A model generated the notes under the pieces. It worked only from the letters and a program-made list of their open reading frames with translations. It was not told the origin of the DNA and did not search any database. A program made the position numbers and the translations under genes. From the NCBI GenBank assembly GCA_018697035.1, contig JABHSE010000002.1, positions 155,160 through 219,159 of the forward strand: DNA of 64,000 bases, given 5' to 3'. This document shows positions 6,407 through 49,355 of this stretch, piece by piece. Every line of letters begins with the position of its first letter. The first letter of the stretch is position 1. The DNA is from an archaeon (GTDB lineage Archaea > Nanobdellota > Nanobdellia > Pacearchaeales > GW2011-AR1).

Positions 6407-7026
6407 CGTCTCTCCAAAACAACAACCGGCTTAGTCATCGTAAATTTAACCAAAACATCCTTAACATTATCATTACCTCTCGGCAACTTCTTAGTCAACT
6501 CAACCACAGCAGCATCAATATTCTCAACCAAATCTTTATCCGACATACTCTCCTTTCCAACTCGAACCTTAATCGACATCTCCTTATTTTTAACCCTAAT
6601 CGCCTTCTTCATTTTATCAATCATAGCCTCAATCATAACATCATCCTCCTTAGGAACAATCCCAGCTAACGGAGACGGCATCTTGTTAATCGGACCGAAC
6701 ACACGACCAAACTTAGTAGCAACTTTACCCATCATCGGCGCAACGGCCAAAAACGCATCGTACTTCTTTGCCAAATTCTTAATATCCTTAGTATCCTTAT
6801 ACTTAACAAAATCCTCCTCGGTAATCGTATTAATCAAATCAGTCCTCTTACTAAAAAAAGCAGCAAGTTTCTTCTCCATCCCATGCGGCACAAAAACAAA
6901 AGTATTCAAAGCCTCACGACGAACATCAAAATTCTTCAAATTCACAATCAAGTCAACCGACTGATCAAACTTTCTCTTCTTCTCATTTCGAAGTTCCGCA
7001 ATTGCTTTTATTGTTTCCATGTCCAT
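6403..7026 (-). CDS. rpl1: 50S ribosomal protein L1
   Basis: 207 aa. KRKFDQSVDLIVNLKNFD and FDAFLAVAPMMGKVATKFGRVFGP are typical of L1. Confidence 0.9.
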   Translation of the reverse strand: MDMETIKAIAELRNEKKRKFDQSVDLIVNLKNFDVRREALNTFVFVPHGMEKKLAAFFSKRTDLINTITEEDFVKYKDTKDIKNLAKKYDAFLAVAPMMGKVATKFGRVFGPINKMPSPLAGIVPKEDDVMIEAMIDKMKKAIRVKNKEMSIKVRVGKESMSDKDLVENIDAAVVELTKKLPRGNDNVKDVLVKFTMTKPVVVLERR

Positions 7027-7168
7027 TAAACTGTTAGAATTTTTTCGGATTACTCCTTCTACTAACAGTAGTAATAACTAATCAAAATTTTACTTTATAA
7101 AAGTTACCATTACCAATTTCTAACCCAATCACAACAATCCTTAAATAACAAATCTTCTAAATAATAAA

Positions 7169-7522
7169 ATGGAACTAATAGCACTCTTATCAACCGGAAA
7201 GGGAACATGGGGACAAATCGCAGGTCTAATCCAAAAAGGCGAATGGGAAAAAGTAATAGTTGTCGGCCCACCTTTCGCAAAAGATTTCACAGTTAGTGGA
7301 GAACCCTTCGACTTCATAGAATTCGACCCCAATAAAAATTTAGTCCAACTAAAAAAAGAATTTACTTCTAAACTAAAAGGCAAGTTCAATGGACTAGAGG
7401 TAGCACTCTCAATCGCATCAGGAAACGGTAAAGAACACATGGCCCTCCAATCCGCTCTTCTAAATCTCCCAGTTGGCGTCCGATTCACAGCCCTAACAAA
7501 AGACGGCGTGATAATGTTATAA
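7169..7522 (+). CDS. hypothetical protein
   Basis: 117 aa (MELIALLSTGKGTWGQIAGLIQKG...). The opposite-strand ORF 7141..7488 looks like a shadow. No family recognised. Confidence 0.5.
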   Translation: MELIALLSTGKGTWGQIAGLIQKGEWEKVIVVGPPFAKDFTVSGEPFDFIEFDPNKNLVQLKKEFTSKLKGKFNGLEVALSIASGNGKEHMALQSALLNLPVGVRFTALTKDGVIML

Positions 7523-7524
7523 AA

Positions 7525-7833
7525 ATGGACATGCGAGAAGAGTGGAAGAGCATTGTAGAAGAATATCCTCCATTAGATTTTTGTAAGGAAAATTGTAAAG
7601 GTTCAGAATATACCGGTTTGATAGAACTTGAAGCTCCTGGTATAAATCTAGGTGGAAACGAGCACGCAGCAGGAAATTATTATTGGCAAATGTCTTTAGC
7701 AAGAAGAGCTCATTGTACTGAGTGCGAAGAAGCTATGATCTGGAAGTTAGGAGAAACAAAAAAAAATCTAATAAAAATAGCCAAAGAAGCAATAATAGAT
7801 TCAAAATTAAAAAATTTAATCAAAAAAATTTAA
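7525..7833 (+). CDS. hypothetical Cys-containing protein
   Basis: 102 aa. G>C on a plus-strand gene, which is atypical composition. Overlaps the 3' end of taw1 by 14 nt. Confidence 0.4.
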   Translation: MDMREEWKSIVEEYPPLDFCKENCKGSEYTGLIELEAPGINLGGNEHAAGNYYWQMSLARRAHCTECEEAMIWKLGETKKNLIKIAKEAIIDSKLKNLIKKI

Positions 7834-8947
7834 TCTTCATATCAACACTCTTCCGAACCAAAGCAACAACACAACTCCGATCATCCTCAGCCCCAACACT
7901 AAAATCCCCAAGCCTCTCTCCAAGTGCACGAGCAAACTCTTTAATCCCCTCATGCCAAACCTGATTATCATAACCCATCCTCTCCTTCGCATACCCAACA
8001 GCCTTATACCCCTTAACATGAACAAAATCCGGCTCAGCCCGCTTGATCAAAGAAACATACTCATCAATCATGTCGTCTTCCCCGACCCCCAACTCCCGAC
8101 CCCCAACTCCCGACTCTTTTACCATATTACTCATCTCCCCAAACTCACCCTCGCTACCCTCCTTAACAAGCGTCAACCGAACAACCCGCCTCACTTTCCC
8201 CTTTAGCTCTCTCATCACATCCAAACTTTCTCCAAACTTAACCCAAGCATCCCGAACAGAAGACCGATGCCATTTCAAAAACAATTCCTCATTAGGAGCA
8301 TTACAAGAAATAACAAGTTGAGTAGGCAATCCACTAACAAAATCCTGTTCCATTTTTTCATTGTCCGCGTTTGTCCGCGTAGTCCGCGGTTCATTTTTTC
8401 TCTCCACTCTCTCCAACCTTTTAATAGCCTCAGGATTCAACCCATTACTAACCAAAAAACTAACAGCTCCCCGTCGACGTATCTCCGCAAACATCTCCCC
8501 AAGCCGTGGATAAAGCGTAGACTCTCCACTAAGACTCATCGTAAAAAGGCTAGGCTCAATATCTTTTTCAAAACTCTCAGAATCAACATCCGCATTCCCC
8601 TTCATCCCCTGCAACATCTCACGCCGCTTAGCAACAATCCCATCCAATATCTCAACCGGATCATCCACGCTCGGCAACTCAGTCCCAAGATTCATCTCAA
8701 TCGGCCTCCAACAATGCAAACACTTATTCTCACACCACATCACCGACGGCGTCATCTGAACACACCCACTACTCTTGATCCCATAAAACTTCTCTTTCCA
8801 ACATCCCCTGTCTCCCTTTAAAGAATTCTTCGTCCATCGACAAATCTGCACAGCACTAGTCTCACCAACAAGACCATAGTTCATTTTTTCGAGCTTGTCT
8901 CGAACATTATTAGCTTCGCATTTACGTTTTGGATTATCCCTAGCCAT
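7820..8947 (-). CDS. taw1: tRNA 4-demethylwyosine synthase Taw1 (radical SAM), with two repeat-derived inserts
   Basis: SAVQICRWTKNSLKGDRGCWKEKFYGIKSSGCVQMTPSVMWCENKCLHCWRP matches the Taw1/TYW1 N-terminal cluster and radical SAM region. Inserts are ESGVGGRELGVGEDD and NEPRTTRTNADNEK. Confidence 0.8.
   Translation of the reverse strand: MARDNPKRKCEANNVRDKLEKMNYGLVGETSAVQICRWTKNSLKGDRGCWKEKFYGIKSSGCVQMTPSVMWCENKCLHCWRPIEMNLGTELPSVDDPVEILDGIVAKRREMLQGMKGNADVDSESFEKDIEPSLFTMSLSGESTLYPRLGEMFAEIRRRGAVSFLVSNGLNPEAIKRLERVERKNEPRTTRTNADNEKMEQDFVSGLPTQLVISCNAPNEELFLKWHRSSVRDAWVKFGESLDVMRELKGKVRRVVRLTLVKEGSEGEFGEMSNMVKESGVGGRELGVGEDDMIDEYVSLIKRAEPDFVHVKGYKAVGYAKERMGYDNQVWHEGIKEFARALGERLGDFSVGAEDDRSCVVALVRKSVDMKIKFF
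8082..8116. repeat. tandem 14-mer (two heptamers) array inside taw1
   Basis: (CCGACCCCCAACTC)x2 plus CCGACTC on the plus strand. In frame, it encodes SGVGGRELGVG. Confidence 0.85.
8347..8400. repeat. tandem decamer array flanked by direct repeats inside taw1
   Basis: TTGTCCGCGT x2 plus AGTCCGCGGT (8361-8390). Bracketed by GTTCCATTTTTTC (8347-8359) and GTTCATTTTTTC (8389-8400), 42 nt apart, so in frame. Confidence 0.8.
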
Positions 8948-9012
8948 AAAAACAAAACCCGATTCCCACTTATAAAATTAATTAATAAAAAATAAAATAA
9001 AAATTAAGAAGA

Positions 9013-9213
9013 TTACCTCTTCTTCTTTTTCTTAGCAACCTTTTTCTTGACCGCTTTTCTCTTAACTACTTTCTTCTTAGCAACCTTTTTCTTAGCCGGT
9101 TTCTTCTTAGCAGCTGCAGCAAGTTTCTTTTTTCTTTGTTCCATTGCAGTTACTTGTTTCTTAAGAGAACGAATCTTAATCACACACTGTTTTGGAGTTG
9201 TTGGTAAAGCCAT
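9013..9213 (-). CDS. small lysine-rich basic protein (possible nucleic-acid binding)
   Basis: 66 aa with C-terminal KKKPAKKKVAKKKVVKRKAVKKKVAKKKKKR. The tail is similar to the C-terminus of the 48822..49355 product. Confidence 0.5.
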   Translation of the reverse strand: MALPTTPKQCVIKIRSLKKQVTAMEQRKKKLAAAAKKKPAKKKVAKKKVVKRKAVKKKVAKKKKKR

Positions 9214-9282
9214 ATTTTATACACCTCATTTAGTTAGAGCAAAAGCTCAACATTAAGACGCCATCCCCCTTTAAATAACTTA

Positions 9283-10704
9283 TCAAATAACTCTCACGAA
9301 CCAAAAAAACATCATCAACGCAAACATAAATAATATCAAATAAGTCGCAACCTTATACGCATTCTTAGCTAACTTCTCCGAACCAAAGACGCTCAAAATA
9401 GCCAAGTAAAAAAACCGACCACCGTCGAGCATTCCAATCGGCATCATATTAAACAAAGCCACAAGCAAATTAATAATCATAATCCACCAAAGAAAATAAT
9501 AAATGAACCAAACAAAATCACCATTCCAAGTCGGTTTATAATAAGTAGATGACTCCTTGAACCCCATAAACTTCGCCAACAATCCCTGAATAACTCCTCG
9601 AGGATTAGCCTCATTGTGCCCAACACCCAAATAAGCCTTCGACGAATCCTCAGGGTGCTCACCCAACATAACATCATACTCCTCAATGCCATCAACACCA
9701 TTAACATTCTCAGTCACAAATCTAACAACATCCCCCGGATTCTTGTTCTCTAAAAACCATCTCAAATCATCAAGCCTCAAAATCTTCACATCATCAGCCT
9801 GAATAATCGCACCCTTCATCCCAGCCAAAACAGCAGGCGCCTCCACATAAGCAATTAAATATTCCGCACCAACAACATTAAGCTGCGAAGCAAGCCCATC
9901 ATCCAAATAATAATTCCCATCACTAGTCAACACTTTCTTTAAGCCATCAATATCTTCAAACCCACTCACATTATCCAACGGAATCGCAGCCACACCATAC
10001 GAATTAAAAACATATCCAGATGCCGCAAACGAACTAAAAAAGAAGCCAACATAAAGAAGATAAAATAACAACGCCATCAAAATATTAGCAAAAACACCAG
10101 CCCCCAAAACCGTCATCTGATTCAACTTACTCTTGCTTTTCAAACTCCTCTCACTCTGCTCAACAAACGCTCCAAGTATCGGTCCTAAAAAAATTAACCC
10201 AGTAGACTTAATCTTAATCTTAAACAGCCTCATAAAAACCCCATGACTAAACTCATGAGAAATAGCAACAATTGCCAAAGCAATCATAAAATAGGTTATA
10301 TAAAAAGTTGGAAAAAAAGACTTCATCCCAAACAACTGCGGAAAATACGGAATCAATGGAGCAATCGGAGGCGCCTTAATCACCTGCGTAATCTCAGGAT
10401 GAAGCAAATAAATAGAAGCAGTCTTCCCCAGCATCCAAACCATCGTTCCCATCAAAACAGCACCAACCCCAACAATCAACCATTTCATTTTCCTCATAAC
10501 TTCACCGAACTTATCAGCAAACCACGTAATAGCACTAACTCCAAATTGCGTTCTCCATAAAAACATCCAACCATCCCTACTCAATCCTTCTACAGATTTC
10601 CCCTTCTTCTTTAAAAAAATCGTCAACACAATTCCAAGCAATACCCAAAAACCAATGTCTGCAATCATAATCTTAGTCAGTTCAAGCCCCAAAATATTCA
10701 CCAT
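9283..10704 (-). CDS. site-2 protease family (M50) membrane metalloprotease
   Basis: HEFSHGVFMR (HExxH) sits in a TM helix, with a central soluble insert and a C-terminal NLLVALFNMMPIGMLDGG motif. First ATG is at 10704; the track start 10719 is TTG. Confidence 0.75.
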   Translation of the reverse strand: MVNILGLELTKIMIADIGFWVLLGIVLTIFLKKKGKSVEGLSRDGWMFLWRTQFGVSAITWFADKFGEVMRKMKWLIVGVGAVLMGTMVWMLGKTASIYLLHPEITQVIKAPPIAPLIPYFPQLFGMKSFFPTFYITYFMIALAIVAISHEFSHGVFMRLFKIKIKSTGLIFLGPILGAFVEQSERSLKSKSKLNQMTVLGAGVFANILMALLFYLLYVGFFFSSFAASGYVFNSYGVAAIPLDNVSGFEDIDGLKKVLTSDGNYYLDDGLASQLNVVGAEYLIAYVEAPAVLAGMKGAIIQADDVKILRLDDLRWFLENKNPGDVVRFVTENVNGVDGIEEYDVMLGEHPEDSSKAYLGVGHNEANPRGVIQGLLAKFMGFKESSTYYKPTWNGDFVWFIYYFLWWIMIINLLVALFNMMPIGMLDGGRFFYLAILSVFGSEKLAKNAYKVATYLILFMFALMMFFWFVRVI

Positions 10705-33207: not shown

Positions 33208-34959
33208 TTATTCTTCAAGACTTTTCTCGACCCCATCAACAACCCAGTTATACCCATCATCAGTATAAACCCCATCATAATTAACAGCCCCACCACAATC
33301 TCCAAGCGAACTACAAACAGCATTAGCACTCTCAGCCCACTCATTACCCAAACACTCAGCCCCCTCAACAATATCACTCCCACCAATCAAACCCTCTTCA
33401 TAAACCACAACACATCGAGCACTGGCCTGTCCACAAATAGTCCCAGCACTCCCCTCTTTCCAAAATTCTAGACCAGGCGGAAAATTAGGAACACAAATTC
33501 CATTAGGCCTATTAGTAGTAGTTCCCTCAATTTCTTCTTCATCATCATCCCCACCACCAAAAATCGAATCCCCAGTAATAGGCGCAATAACAGCAGCCGT
33601 AGGATTAGTAAACGCAGGAGTATCGGTATCACTTGTAGGATTAGAATAACTACTAGAACTACTACTTCCCCCACCCAAAATCATCCCCATAACAGAACCC
33701 ATCCACTTACAATCTCTCTGATCAATATTCAAACAATCTTCCTCATCAGCCTGCATCACACAATCTTGCCATCGATTAACCCGACAAGCCGCAGTCCCAA
33801 AATCCCCTTCATCCGTATCAATCGAGCCCTCTAAACAAACCTCATTCCTAAAATCACTACAAGGCTCAACCTTCACCTCACCATCAACACAAATCTCTCT
33901 GTAGTGCCGACTACCGACATCCGAACCCCGACTACCGAAATCCTCTACACACCAAGACTCCCCATTAATCCGCTTATCCCCCCCCCTATCTATACACTCA
34001 GTCTTCTGACAATAATGATCTCCTCCAACAGGTCCACCAATCATCCCATCGAACTCTTCACACCGAGTCCCCAATAAATAATCACAATTCCCACAATTAA
34101 GATCATCCCCATTATTTGCAGCACAAACCTCCACGTCTTCAGCAACTCGACCATTATTCCAACTCTTATCCTTATTACTCGAATAAACGTTTTCATTATT
34201 TCCACAAGAGTCTACCCAAAAAACATCACCCTGATAACAAGTAGTCGAAGTCTGCCTAGCGCAAGCCGTATTCAATTCCTCAGCCGAACAAAGATAATCT
34301 TTGTAAAAGGTCTTCCCACTCGCAACATCTAGGGTATCATTTTGAGCAACAATCTCAACTTCATTAACAGCACCACACTCTCCTCTCGTCGTAAACTCAC
34401 AAATATTTTCAAAATCACTTTCATAAACACAAGCACCTTTATCTTGTGCCTGAGCCTCCGCAATACAACTAACCTCGTCGGTAATATCAGTCCTATAATC
34501 ATTCTCAACACCAAACAAAGTCGACAATCTCTTACATCGAACAAGCGGAACAAACGCAGCCTGGTCCGCAATCACACAACATCCCAACTGACACTGCGGT
34601 ACCTCATCAACTTCTCTCTCGTCCCAAGTCCCACCATTCTCATTACAAACATTTTGCGGCGTATTCCCCATACAAATTCCCTCCTCACTCTCATAACAAG
34701 TTCCAAGTCGACAATACGAAGTAGTCTCGCACGAAGTCGGCGCAACATTATAACTAGTATCACAAGCACTCTCTTCGTCATTCACACACCACGCTCCCTC
34801 AGTTGTCTTCTCACAACAATAACTAGCTTCACTAGTCGCAGCCATTCCAAGTCCAGCTAACAAAATAATCATAACAAAAAACAACCAACCCGGGCGTAGC
34901 CCCCGATCTCCTAACCCCCAACTCCTAACCCCCAACTTATGAAAATTCCCTATTTTCAT
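33208..34959 (-). CDS. Cys-rich secreted protein (paralog of the N-terminal half of the 36194..40054 product)
   Basis: 583 aa. Dozens of Cys in CxxC-poor, EGF-like spacing. GESWCVEDFGSRGSDVGSRHYREICVDGEVKVEPCSDFRNEVC and LGDCGGAVN are shared with the fusion protein. ATGA overlap with the upstream gene. Confidence 0.65.
   Translation of the reverse strand: MKIGNFHKLGVRSWGLGDRGLRPGWLFFVMIILLAGLGMAATSEASYCCEKTTEGAWCVNDEESACDTSYNVAPTSCETTSYCRLGTCYESEEGICMGNTPQNVCNENGGTWDEREVDEVPQCQLGCCVIADQAAFVPLVRCKRLSTLFGVENDYRTDITDEVSCIAEAQAQDKGACVYESDFENICEFTTRGECGAVNEVEIVAQNDTLDVASGKTFYKDYLCSAEELNTACARQTSTTCYQGDVFWVDSCGNNENVYSSNKDKSWNNGRVAEDVEVCAANNGDDLNCGNCDYLLGTRCEEFDGMIGGPVGGDHYCQKTECIDRGGDKRINGESWCVEDFGSRGSDVGSRHYREICVDGEVKVEPCSDFRNEVCLEGSIDTDEGDFGTAACRVNRWQDCVMQADEEDCLNIDQRDCKWMGSVMGMILGGGSSSSSSYSNPTSDTDTPAFTNPTAAVIAPITGDSIFGGGDDDEEEIEGTTTNRPNGICVPNFPPGLEFWKEGSAGTICGQASARCVVVYEEGLIGGSDIVEGAECLGNEWAESANAVCSSLGDCGGAVNYDGVYTDDGYNWVVDGVEKSLEE
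33907..33941. repeat. heptamer array CCGACTA CCGACAT CCGAACC CCGACTA CCGAAAT
   Basis: Read directly. In frame inside the 583-aa CDS, where it encodes FGSRGSDVGSRH. Confidence 0.85.
34909..34936. repeat. perfect (TCCTAACCCCCAAC)x2 heptamer-pair array
   Basis: Read directly. Lies in codons 8-17 of the 583-aa gene (LGVRSWGLG). Confidence 0.9.
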
Positions 34960-42940: not shown

Positions 42941-44542
42941 ATGGCAACAGACCCAAACGCAAAACCCTCCAAAGCCTCTCACATAGCCGTCTCATACTAC
43001 TCCCGCCTAGACATCCAAAACGCCATGTTCCAATTCTGCAAAAACAGAGAAACAGTAGCAAACCACAACAACAACTTCTTCGCAAAACGCCCAGACACAT
43101 TTGACTACCCCTCAGACATCTTAAATCAAGCAAAAAACGGCGCAACCTCATTCCACACCTCAGAAGAAATATGGACAAACCCACTCGACATCAACACAGA
43201 CATGACCCCACAACAATACAACCAAATCAAAACCGGCTGGGACCTCCTAATAGACATCGACTCCCCATTCCTAGACTACGGAAAAATCGCAGCAAGACTC
43301 CTAATCAACGAACTCGAAAACCACGGCATCCACAACATCGGCATCAAATTCTCAGGCTCCAAAGGCTTCCATATCATCGTCCCCTTCAAAGCATTCCCAA
43401 AAGAACTAGGAGGTCTCCAAACAAAAGACCAATTCCCAGAATGGCCCCGAGCAATCGCAACCTACCTCTTCAAAAAAATCCGAAACCCAATGAACAAAGA
43501 AATACTAGAAATGTCATCCAAAGAAAAACTAATCGAACAAGGCGAGTTAGTCTCTGAGGCCACCTGCCCAAAATGCAACAAACCAACAATAAAAAAGAAA
43601 ATTCACAAGTACACTTGCCCAAACATAAAATGCAAATCAGTCCTAGAGGGATTCACAAAAAAAAGACTGGCAATGATATGCCCAAGTTGCAACACAAAAA
43701 TGAATCTCATAAACAGCCGAGAAGTAGATTTTTGTGAAACCTGCAAAATCAACACAGCAAAACTCGAAACGACATCTTCATTCGGAGGTATACGTCAAAA
43801 AAACATACAAGCAGGTTTCAAGGAAGAAGTCACAATCAAATCAACCGAAGACTCCGTCGACATAGTCCTAGTATCCCCACGCCACCTCTTCAGATCCCCA
43901 TACTCCCTCCACGAAAAAACCGCCTACGCTTCAATCCCCTTAACCAAAGATCAAATCCAATCCTTCAAACCTTCAGACGCAGACCCACTAAAAATAAAAG
44001 AAATAAAAAACTTCCAGCCCCAATCAGTCGAAGGCGAAGCAACCCTATTATTAGAGAGGGCACTAGAACAAGCCGAAAAAGAAAAGCCAAAAGAAAAACC
44101 CAACCGACCACCGACCACCCAACACCGAATACCCTTGAAGAATTTAGTTATAAATTCTTCAATGTACCCACCAATAATAAAACTCCTCCTAAAAGGAATC
44201 CCAAAAGACGGCCGAAAACGAGCCCTATCTCTTCTCCTTGCATTCTTCACATCCCTCGAATTCCCAGCCGACCATATCAAAGAAATCATCCAAACATGGA
44301 ACACAAAAAATTACGCCCCACTAAAAGAAGGATACGTCCGTGCTCAAATCGACTGGTCCCTGAAAAACAAACGACTTCCCCCAAACTACGACAAACCAAT
44401 CTACAAAGAGTTCGGAATAACTTCACCCCCAGCTCCCGGAATCAAAAACCCAATCAACTACACAATAAAAAAAGCGTTCGCAGCAAGACCTAGAGCTTCA
44501 GAACCTTTCTACGTAAAACCAAAACACAAAGGCCAAATCTAG
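42941..44542 (+). CDS. priS: DNA primase: PriS catalytic domain with zinc-ribbon insert and C-terminal helical domain (fused type)
   Basis: WDLLIDIDS and KFSGSKGFHIIVPF are AEP motifs I and II. CPKCNK...CPNIKC...CPSCNT...CETC are Zn ribbons. The C-terminal GRKRALSLLLAFFTSLEFPADHIKEIIQTWN is a helical bundle. Confidence 0.75.
   Translation: MATDPNAKPSKASHIAVSYYSRLDIQNAMFQFCKNRETVANHNNNFFAKRPDTFDYPSDILNQAKNGATSFHTSEEIWTNPLDINTDMTPQQYNQIKTGWDLLIDIDSPFLDYGKIAARLLINELENHGIHNIGIKFSGSKGFHIIVPFKAFPKELGGLQTKDQFPEWPRAIATYLFKKIRNPMNKEILEMSSKEKLIEQGELVSEATCPKCNKPTIKKKIHKYTCPNIKCKSVLEGFTKKRLAMICPSCNTKMNLINSREVDFCETCKINTAKLETTSSFGGIRQKNIQAGFKEEVTIKSTEDSVDIVLVSPRHLFRSPYSLHEKTAYASIPLTKDQIQSFKPSDADPLKIKEIKNFQPQSVEGEATLLLERALEQAEKEKPKEKPNRPPTTQHRIPLKNLVINSSMYPPIIKLLLKGIPKDGRKRALSLLLAFFTSLEFPADHIKEIIQTWNTKNYAPLKEGYVRAQIDWSLKNKRLPPNYDKPIYKEFGITSPPAPGIKNPINYTIKKAFAARPRASEPFYVKPKHKGQI
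44104..44131. repeat. heptamer array CCGACCA x2, CCCAACA, CCGAATA inside the primase gene
   Basis: Read directly. Encodes NRPPTTQHRI between the catalytic and helical domains. Confidence 0.85.
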
Positions 44543-48821: not shown

Positions 48822-49355
48822 TTACTTTTTCTTAACAACCTTTTTCTTAACAGCTTTTTTCTTCACTTTCTTAACGGCCTTCCTCTTCTTCAACTTCGCA
48901 ATTTCCTCATCCCTCTCAGTCAAAACACCCTGCATCACTTTCAAATGCGCTTCCATCTGCTTATACCTCTCGCCCAAAATCTTTGCAATCTCATCATACC
49001 GATGCAATCTACCCGAAATATTATTCAACAAACCAGTTGCCTCACCAGAATCCAAATTAATATCACTAGGCTCAATAACCTCAATAGAACTCGGCATAAA
49101 ATCAAACATAGTTTCACTAAGTCTCGCAAAACTCGGAGCCTCAAAATCACACTCTGCAAAAGCCGTAAACATCTCCTCTCCCTTAACAACCTCCTTCCCC
49201 TCTTCAGCAGCAATAACCCTAGGCTCACTAACCTTAATCTCATGAATCTCCAAGTCCTTAACCTGCCTCAAAACCCCAACATGCTTCTCAATAGCCTCAG
49301 TCAAATGCGCAGCAGGCCGACCCGCCATCTCAACAATCATAATTACTCTTACCAT
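48822..49355 (-). CDS. hypothetical protein with Lys-rich C-terminal tail
   Basis: 177 aa with tail KKRKAVKKVKKKAVKKKVVKKK. Confidence 0.5.
   Translation of the reverse strand: MVRVIMIVEMAGRPAAHLTEAIEKHVGVLRQVKDLEIHEIKVSEPRVIAAEEGKEVVKGEEMFTAFAECDFEAPSFARLSETMFDFMPSSIEVIEPSDINLDSGEATGLLNNISGRLHRYDEIAKILGERYKQMEAHLKVMQGVLTERDEEIAKLKKRKAVKKVKKKAVKKKVVKKK

Follow-up and report, generated by a model that had tools for sequence, protein, structure and literature searches.

A 64,000-nt stretch of contig JABHSE010000002.1 (assembly GCA_018697035.1), from an archaeon of the order Pacearchaeales and referred to here as the window, carries the gene taw1/TYW1, which encodes 4-demethylwyosine synthase. 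We found that two GC-rich tandem micro-repeats are translated within this gene. A sequence-only reading of the same DNA had placed them at 8082-8116 and 8361-8390, had given their peptides, and had named the host as the radical S-adenosylmethionine (SAM) gene taw1. The exact sequence and Tandem Repeats Finder (TRF) confirm the repeats and the peptides, and Pfam, TIGR03972, and a match to the Protein Data Bank (PDB) structure 2yx0 confirm the host. Both segments also keep the frame of the 375-amino-acid open reading frame (ORF) at 7820-8947, as that reading had stated. Their extent was understated: each micro-repeat is no more than the core of a longer insert, of 25 residues around 8361-8390 (insert A) and of 14 around 8082-8116 (insert B).

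Two in-frame repeats in a taw1 gene

7820-8947, minus strand: taw1/TYW1 (4-demethylwyosine synthase), the host gene; 375-amino-acid ORF with Pfam, TIGRFAM, PDB, and AlphaFold2 (AF2) matches
8711-8734, minus strand: radical-SAM cluster motif C72-x3-C76-x2-C79 (CENKCLHC), intact; columns invariant in an alignment of 120 homologs
8333-8407, minus strand: insert A, 25 additional codons for residues 181-205 (VERKNEPRTTRTNADNEKMEQDFVS), after helix 172-177 and before strand 210-214
8361-8390, minus strand: array A (TRF), three 9- to 10-nt units with a CGCGGAC core, coding strand CCGCGGACT ACGCGGACAA ACGCGGACAA
8078-8119, minus strand: insert B, 14 additional codons for residues 277-290 (KESGVGGRELGVGE), in the loop that connects strand 253-260 with helix 290-304
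8079-8116, minus strand: array B (TRF), five G-rich heptamers with a 14-nt super-period, preceded by GAG; orthologous arrays in the related loci L004 and L005

By its sequence the host gene is a bona fide TYW1/Taw1. The product matches Pfam Wyosine_form (4.5e-15) and Radical_SAM, and the C-terminal wyosine-formation domain PF08608 scores 56 bits against a cutoff of 22. Sequence-profile comparison with 2yx0 gives E = 7.7e-63, the solved Taw1 structures 2z2u and 6djt being matched as well. The AF2 model has a mean predicted local distance difference test (pLDDT) of 85.7 and a predicted template modeling (TM) score of 0.86; Foldseek aligns it to 2yx0 with E = 1e-29 and a TM score of 0.86, and 6djt and 2z2u rank next. 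The N-terminal auxiliary-cluster cysteines C36, C49, and C62, together with C72, C76, and C79, are invariant in 120 out of 120 homologs. Orthologs are usually 331-339 amino acids long, without insert A or B. Because the inserts split the match, they push the score for the curated family TIGR03972 rSAM_TYW1 under its threshold (277.8 bits, cutoff 317.95), and such inserts inflate apparent protein novelty in the genomes of DPANN archaea and of the candidate phyla radiation. The identical 375-amino-acid protein is encoded on 20 contigs from several samples, so the locus is no assembly artefact. Names attached to homologs and related loci, together with the runs containing the sequence, point to a marine DPANN archaeon of Pacearchaeota/Woesearchaeota type.

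Array B reads, on the plus strand at 8082-8116, CCGACCCCCAACTC twice followed by CCGACTC, which on the coding strand is TCGGGAG TTGGGGG TCGGGAG TTGGGGG TCGGGG(A). It is translated as E-SGVGGRELGVG-E (residues 278-290). TRF reports a period of 14 nt at 8081-8114, with 2.4 copies and 100% matches; the array itself is 35 nt long and the insert 42 nt. The array does mix CCGAC-type and CCCAAC-type heptamers, as had been noticed, and both types are found elsewhere in the window. Its GC content is 69% and that of array A 67%, against 45% for taw1 as a whole. Insert B is without counterpart in 2yx0, in 2z2u, in 67 of the 70 closest homologs, and in all 34 GTDB species representatives; a search for further carriers with residues 262-303 alone returned the query only.

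Array A reads, on the plus strand at 8361-8390, TTGTCCGCGT twice followed by AGTCCGCGGT, and is translated as (E)PRTTRTNAD(N), residues 186-196. TRF gives a period of 10 nt, 3.0 copies, and 89% matches. With its period of 9-10 nt, array A is not a member of the heptamer class to which array B belongs. The string GTCCGCG occurs four times on the plus strand of the 64 kb, three of them in array A. Insert A is without counterpart in the PDB structures of Taw1 and in 66 of the 70 closest homologs. By HMMER the conserved blocks of the query match 2yx0 and 2z2u, with interruptions at residues 178-206 and 263-295 and gaps precisely at 179-205 and 264-294; at these positions the structures have only 4-7 residues.

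In the AF2 model both segments are low-confidence coil, which agrees with a location in loops. Values of pLDDT below 50 occur only at residues 1-10 and 278-289, the second stretch being array B; for insert A the mean is 62 at residues 181-190 and 51 at residues 191-200. Judged from the order of secondary-structure elements in that model, the insert A loop would lead from a helix to a strand at the far end of the barrel, and the insert B loop from a strand to a helix beside the conserved GEF..TNM segment. The units had been described as tandem and not palindromic. They are tandem, and array B folds at -0.3 kcal/mol (z = +0.74) with no hairpin potential, but the CGCG cores of array A give a predicted hairpin with a 5-bp stem, CCGCG/CGCGG (z = -3.5).

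Within the species the inserts appear stable. Both are unchanged in the 20 contigs and in the single variant of the 90% cluster, which differs by one residue outside the inserts. No copy-number polymorphism was seen among the 20 contigs, the cluster variants, and the Logan contigs (contigs only), and no indels at the repeats in the Logan contigs of four runs (assembled contigs, low depth). Logan short-read contigs from independent marine runs end or overlap exactly at 8100-8117 and 8352-8371, and contigs ending inside both micro-repeats indicate that the repeats fragment assemblies of taw1. Slippage by 7 or 14 nt, a unit that is not a multiple of three and so shifts the frame at each step, might in principle toggle taw1 in the population, and the breaks in short-read assemblies at both repeats could be read in the same way. 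The uniform length in all the material just listed, the mere 2.4 copies of the 14-mer, and the housekeeping nature of this tRNA-modification enzyme make such contingency loci very improbable.

Orthologous arrays and their patchy distribution

Orthologous copies of array B occur in two other species and let the evolution of the array be read directly:

Window: TCGGGAG TTGGGGG TCGGGAG TTGGGGG TCGGGGA; insert of 42 nt
L004 (P0004): TCGGGAG TCGGTGG TCGGGAG TCGGTGG TCGTGGG; insert of 39 nt
L005 (P0009): TCGGAGG TCGGTTG TCGGGAG TCGGTTG TCGAAGG; insert of 51 nt

In codon alignments the three species, of ~77% nucleotide identity, have the same five-heptamer layout (a-b-a-b-c) at the same codon; taw1 array carriers in other species have about 67-70% protein identity to the window. 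All three insert lengths are multiples of three, which argues for translation and selection on the frame. Each difference in the b unit between species is found in both b copies, at three paired sites, and the unpaired differences are two bases in one a unit. From the sequences, the paired changes are the product of concerted evolution or of copying from a periodic template, not of independent substitution in a frozen array.

At the site of array A, L003 (IRTARTDTD) and L007 carry CGGAC-based micro-repeats, and in L006 the K/E-rich flank of insert A is present and the micro-repeat absent. As far as these sequences tell, the taw1 arrays are older than the window genome. The proposal that both segments are lineage-specific insertions thus stands in part: unrelated archaeal orthologs and the majority of close ones lack them, but arrays at the same codon occur in other species.

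Four variable hot spots, A, B, C, and B0, are found among the 70 closest homologs. Insert A (residues 181-205) occurs in four of these and insert B (residues 277-290) in three, each insert being absent from ~95% of close orthologs. Counted by species, B is found in three related species and A in three to four, at the same codons. Hot spot B0, around residue 265, has other inserts in four of the 70. Insert C, which is absent from the window gene, is non-repetitive and adds 14-46 residues after residue 347 in about eight of the 70:

L003 2336-2440; L004 3964-4071; L006 1994-2092; L011 5931-6068: insert C, a third in-frame insert (about 30-46 amino acids), GIGKAH..GKAQS.DW..SSQGDGGL

Insert C has three small hairpins (z = -1.5, non-significant), and its sequence diverges at least as much as the remaining protein. 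Searches by tblastn with the insert A and insert C peptides matched taw1 loci only, and these two inserts were rejected as dispersed elements. As insert C is patchy, non-repetitive, and confined to taw1, patchiness in taw1 by itself needs no mobile element.

The presence/absence polymorphism in relatives that the sequence-only reading had suggested looking for exists, and it is patchy: by the gene tree, and by the topology tests given below, carriers do not form clades. In a maximum-likelihood tree of 39 homologs, built with all four insert regions removed, carriers pair with insert-less nearest relatives: P0009 (B, C) with P0007 (support 100/96), P0004 (B, C) with P0011 (97/64), and the window (A, B) with P0008 (92/91). 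In addition, P0014 (A, C) lies inside a clade (100/94) of otherwise insert-less members. The minimum number of changes on this tree is four for A, three for B, and seven to eight for C. Repeated loss, repeated gain, or exchange must therefore have occurred.

Exchange is visible in one pair of carriers. At taw1 residues 291-360, a stretch lying between B and C and around them, 22 informative sites link P0009 to P0004 and 17 link it to its sister P0007, versus 56 and 120, respectively, elsewhere in the gene (P = 0.0055, Fisher's test; L004 and L005 compared with L168 and L008). For P0004, the reciprocal comparison yields P = 0.004. These P values are optimistic, since the choice of segment was partly guided by a sliding window. 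By this sequence pattern, rather divergent Pacearchaeota lineages seem to have exchanged gene segments, and recombination is one source of the patchiness, in the P0004/P0009 pair. The window's own gene has no mosaic signal (P = 0.27 to 1). The sister pairs of carriers and noncarriers persist in both the N- and the C-terminal trees, and a large recombinant tract was therefore rejected as the general cause of patchiness.

G-rich heptamer arrays beyond taw1

Array B is one of 10-11 G-rich arrays in the 64 kb, with units such as TCGGGAG, TCGGTGG, TTGGGAG, TTGGGGG, TTAGGAG, and TCGTTGG. Period-7 arrays with at least three copies number four in the window, against 0.23 in shuffled sequence; at a looser cut there are three of period 7 (0.8 in shuffles) and six of period 14 (about 0.5, 0.47). 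Periods of 4, 5, 8, 10, 11, 13, and 16 nt are at or below chance, and 7/14 is the sole enriched period outside the multiples of three. In every array the G-rich strand is the minus strand, on which the region as a whole is rich in G and T: the plus strand has 36.6% A, 26.4% C, 12.7% G, and 24.3% T, and GC skew is about -0.45 over most of the window.

About seven of the 11 arrays lie in ORFs, six of these with the G-rich strand coding, and the remainder at gene junctions. The heptamers are translated in three frames in various genes (ESGVGGRELGVGE, ESVVGGRWSDD, VGSWELD, KLGVRSWGLGDRG, and QVGSWELGVRS), which points to an origin at the DNA level. A plus-strand, primase-like gene at 42941-44542 contains at 44103-44128 the C-rich complement, translated as NRPPTTQHR. 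This array has the same absolute orientation as the others, which indicates that the arrays follow the chromosome strand or its composition and not the direction of genes.

In related loci (381 kb in all) the arrays are fewer and have other units, TAGCTNT, CAGTTGA, and TAGTTGG. In one relative (metagenome-assembled genome CSMAG_2291; L043 5001-5530), taw1 is internally deleted, its N-terminal ~123 residues (tblastn match to query residues 1-127) being joined to the last ~30, and its TAG stop belongs to the opening unit of a (TAGTTGG) x7.6 array. This taw1 looks like a gene decaying beside a long heptamer array.

Farther afield, a scan of metagenome contigs for TCGGGAGTNGGNGGTCGGGAGT found at least 119 matching stretches, far above chance for 20 specified bases, the pattern being derived from array B so that recovery of the a-b-a layout is partly built in. 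Among the matches listed, most are TCGGGAG/TCGGGGG arrays in contigs of 55-72% GC (L049-L128). High-GC soil contigs have several arrays per large contig, often with a complementary array 20-60 nt downstream, the two forming hairpin-forming pairs. None of the fetched metagenome loci with the pattern has it in taw1. In three low-GC cases the array lies inside a long ORF, on the G-rich strand:

Archaeal-type phenylalanyl-tRNA synthetase (PheRS) beta, B5 domain: in frame, SRESVVGSR; b unit TCGGTGG, as in the taw1 of L004
Bacterial biotin-protein ligase (BirA): in frame, SRELGVGSQ; b unit TTGGGGG, as in the window (PheRS/BirA pair on low-GC contigs: L121 1457-1510; L110 1541-1576)
Family-2 glycosyltransferase: the third low-GC array within an ORF, at the C-terminal end

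Array B also coincides with a candidate G-quadruplex (G4):

8086-8111, minus strand: putative G4 motif (four tracts of at least three G, loops of up to 4 nt), the sole canonical motif in the window by regex scan

This motif bears on whether the inserts are kept for a function, either as flexible Gly/Val/Arg/Ser loops for contacts with tRNA or a partner or as a G4 that tunes taw1 expression. For Xanthomonas and Nostoc, G-rich heptamers have been shown to form G4 in vitro, with a preference for four units (PMC4692102). By topology the B loop, following a beta strand, may sit on the catalytic face of the barrel, and between the window and L004 identity is 87% for the array and 77% for the whole gene. 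However, four G3 tracts are missing from the orthologous arrays of L004 and L005, most close relatives manage well with neither insert, the peptides vary between species and are predicted to be disordered, and in other genes the same heptamers are read in three frames. Canonical G4 motifs are, if anything, depleted on the window's minus strand (one observed, 3.25 expected from shuffles), and among its arrays that in taw1 alone has four G3 tracts, so that G4 formation is unlikely to be a property of the class. A functional role, including regulation by G4, is unlikely, as is phase variation.

Other repeats were noted in the window. A perfect, A/T-rich 14-nt tandem duplication, AAAAAATTTAATCA x1.9, at 7809-7835 has the same period as the G-rich arrays and covers the overlapping convergent 3' ends of taw1 (stop at 7820-7822) and of a plus-strand ORF at 7525-7833. 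Repeats of period 15/30/45 (CTTTTTCTTAGCAAC) at 9025-9112 and 48825-48888 encode lysine-rich tails (KKKVAKKK..), the first in a 66-amino-acid protein adjoining taw1 and the second in a 177-amino-acid protein 40 kb off. A reverse-transcriptase gene (RVT_1) lies at L008 20690-21044, ~10 kb from the taw1 of that relative. Rfam gave zero matches at positions 7000-9500 with E up to 1.

Origin of the arrays and comparison with known systems

On balance we consider it probable, with ample room for doubt, that both segments are tandem repeats that arose at the DNA level, by slippage or template switching, in permissive disordered loops of a working taw1 and have no role in Taw1. During replication, the arrays would be created and remodeled by slipped-strand mispairing or by short-range template switching, and GC-rich 7-mers could stabilize the misaligned intermediates in a genome of 39% GC. 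Only versions that lie in permissive loops and have a total length divisible by three would survive selection. On the time scale of species, arrays would be inherited, homogenized by concerted evolution, repeatedly lost, and sometimes exchanged between lineages. Array B would thus be a member of the G-rich heptamer class, with about four to five units and often 14-nt doublets, and array A a separate 9- to 10-nt CG-rich micro-repeat nested in an older K/E-rich insertion. Both would be translated as disordered surface loops that take no part in Taw1 catalysis.

Several observations weigh against this account. Slippage leaves the 7-nt period without explanation. A change by one 14-nt unit shifts the frame, and contraction and re-expansion would therefore pass through broken intermediates. 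A single gain of each insert would require seven losses of A, 11 of B, and 15 of C. In approximately unbiased (AU) tests, monophyly of the B carriers is rejected, with P = 0.0014 for the whole protein, 0.0017 for residues 1-250, and 0.020 for residues 251-375; the result for A carriers is weaker (P = 0.049). Insert-less sequences keep the outgroup motif MSEEN(L/V)xE where B carriers read (D/N/R)(M/I)I-DE, and with the ancestral motif in insert-less sisters, an insert that was never present appears to fit better than precise loss. The doublet TTGGGGG-TYRGGAG occurs in three window arrays, and a-b-a arrays recur in genes and organisms that are unrelated; both facts hint that the source was a common template or some favored sequence and not random local seeds.

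The gene-tree conflict, the ancestral motif in the sisters, and the a-b-a recurrence keep alive a templated or mobile origin, to which we assign a minor but appreciable chance. The arrays would then have been copied in from a template, through microhomology-mediated switching to another array or through an undescribed mobile or "heptamer-writing" activity at seed-like sites. On this account B, and possibly A as well, would have entered taw1 repeatedly at one permissive codon, by an agent different from that of Rickettsia palindromic elements (RPE) although with a similar effect. The ancestral site AGT GAG GAG (TGAGGAG) is one or two changes from TTAGGAG and TCGGGAG. Both b units are identical within each species, as expected of a copied periodic template, and frameshifted intermediates are unneeded. 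The string GAGTTGGGGGT is common to the taw1 array and the arrays at 34901 and 58422, and the identical in-frame a-b-a arrays in PheRS-beta and BirA and the metagenome matches point the same way, although this last pattern was designed from the array. Array A, for its part, lies within a direct repeat:

8347-8359: direct repeat copy 1 (GTTCCATTTTTTC), flanking array A
8389-8400: direct repeat copy 2 (GTTCATTTTTTC), 42 nt from copy 1; partly kept in L003

This bracket of 12/13 nt had been taken for a duplicated target. The 42-nt spacing is real, and deleting 42 nt from the window gene gives VERKNEQDFVS, which aligns with the VENKKKQD..DFVS of L006, a sequence without the micro-repeat; the coding strand of L003 keeps part of the repeat as GAAAAAAA/GAAAAAAT. 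However, the exact common core of the pair is the low-complexity 9-mer CATTTTTTC, exact pairs of at least 9 nt spaced 20-60 nt apart number 61 in the window and 25 in shuffles (~1 per kb), and no flanking direct repeats were found around the other window arrays, array B included. The bracket is weak evidence for a target duplication, which the L006-like junction would fit.

Further observations speak against a template. Terminal inverted repeats, target duplication, and defined ends are lacking in array B as in the ten others, with which array B has units, but not ends, in common. Unit "dialects" differ among the window arrays, and in the other two carriers of B the 15-20 kb surrounding taw1 contained no second array with the dialect of the taw1 unit. 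Insert C is equally patchy, yet non-repetitive and confined to taw1, and the P0004/P0009 mosaic can explain their shared B and C by recombination. Broader, and in our view doubtful, is the proposition that TCGGGAG/TNGGNGG arrays are laid down repeatedly at seed-like sites by one templated process common to DPANN archaea and many bacteria. Such a process, whether switching between dispersed arrays or a heptamer-adding activity, would have placed the array more than once at one taw1 codon as well as in frame in the PheRS-beta and BirA genes of unrelated organisms. A templated origin, if true, would make the arrays marks of an undescribed mutational process across domains of life.

RPE, reportedly described by Ogata and colleagues in 2000, are palindromic, about 100-150 bp long, and fall into sequence families with defined ends. 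Like the taw1 segments, they are in-frame, translated, surface-located inserts in conserved housekeeping genes whose function is kept, with a patchy distribution among related genomes. The taw1 segments are 30-42 nt long and tandem, array B has no hairpin, and we found no defined ends or element-like copies; an RPE-like, mobile colonization of the gene is not supported, on grounds of length and palindromic structure. RPE are summarized in a review of miniature inverted-repeat transposable elements (PMC10969869).

TAACTGA heptamer direct repeats are abundant and dispersed in marine Beggiatoaceae, by a mechanism left unexplained, and a regulatory role has been proposed for them (PMC4679880). Unlike the taw1 arrays, they are intergenic, A/T-rich, and bacterial, and in-frame loop insertions are not reported for them. 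In the literature searched we found no account of in-frame heptamer arrays in archaeal housekeeping genes.

Low-complexity insertions made by slippage in AT-rich reduced genomes are lineage-specific, disordered, and in frame, occupy permissive sites, and turn over quickly. Their periods are usually multiples of a codon, and they match the compositional bias of the genome. The taw1 arrays differ in both these last respects, with periods of 7/14 or 9-10 nt and GC-rich units against an AT-rich background.

The closest likeness is to the G-rich heptameric simple sequence repeats (SSRs) of bacteria, such as GGGAATC in Xanthomonas and GGGGA(C/T)T in Nostoc (Rehm et al. 2015, PMC4692102). Such repeats are over-represented, for an unexplained cause, and are described as avoiding coding sequence (PMC4692102). 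The window arrays share with these, and with the short tandemly repeated repetitive (STRR) sequences of heterocystous cyanobacteria, a 7-nt unit, G-richness on one strand, ~4-5 units per array, dispersal, and related unit variants. The window units can be written T-Y-R-G-K-R-G, their type GG(G/T)(A/G)GTC resembling GGGNATC, and array B, with five units and 100% periodicity at 14 nt, fits the G-rich heptamer SSR class. The differences from all three are that the host is a DPANN archaeon of 39% GC, that most window arrays lack four G3 tracts, and that 14-nt doublets are common. The window arrays are also often coding, and on the coding strand, in place of a preference for noncoding sequence; translated heptamers inside a conserved enzyme gene of an ultra-small marine archaeon thus contrast with the coding avoidance described in bacteria.

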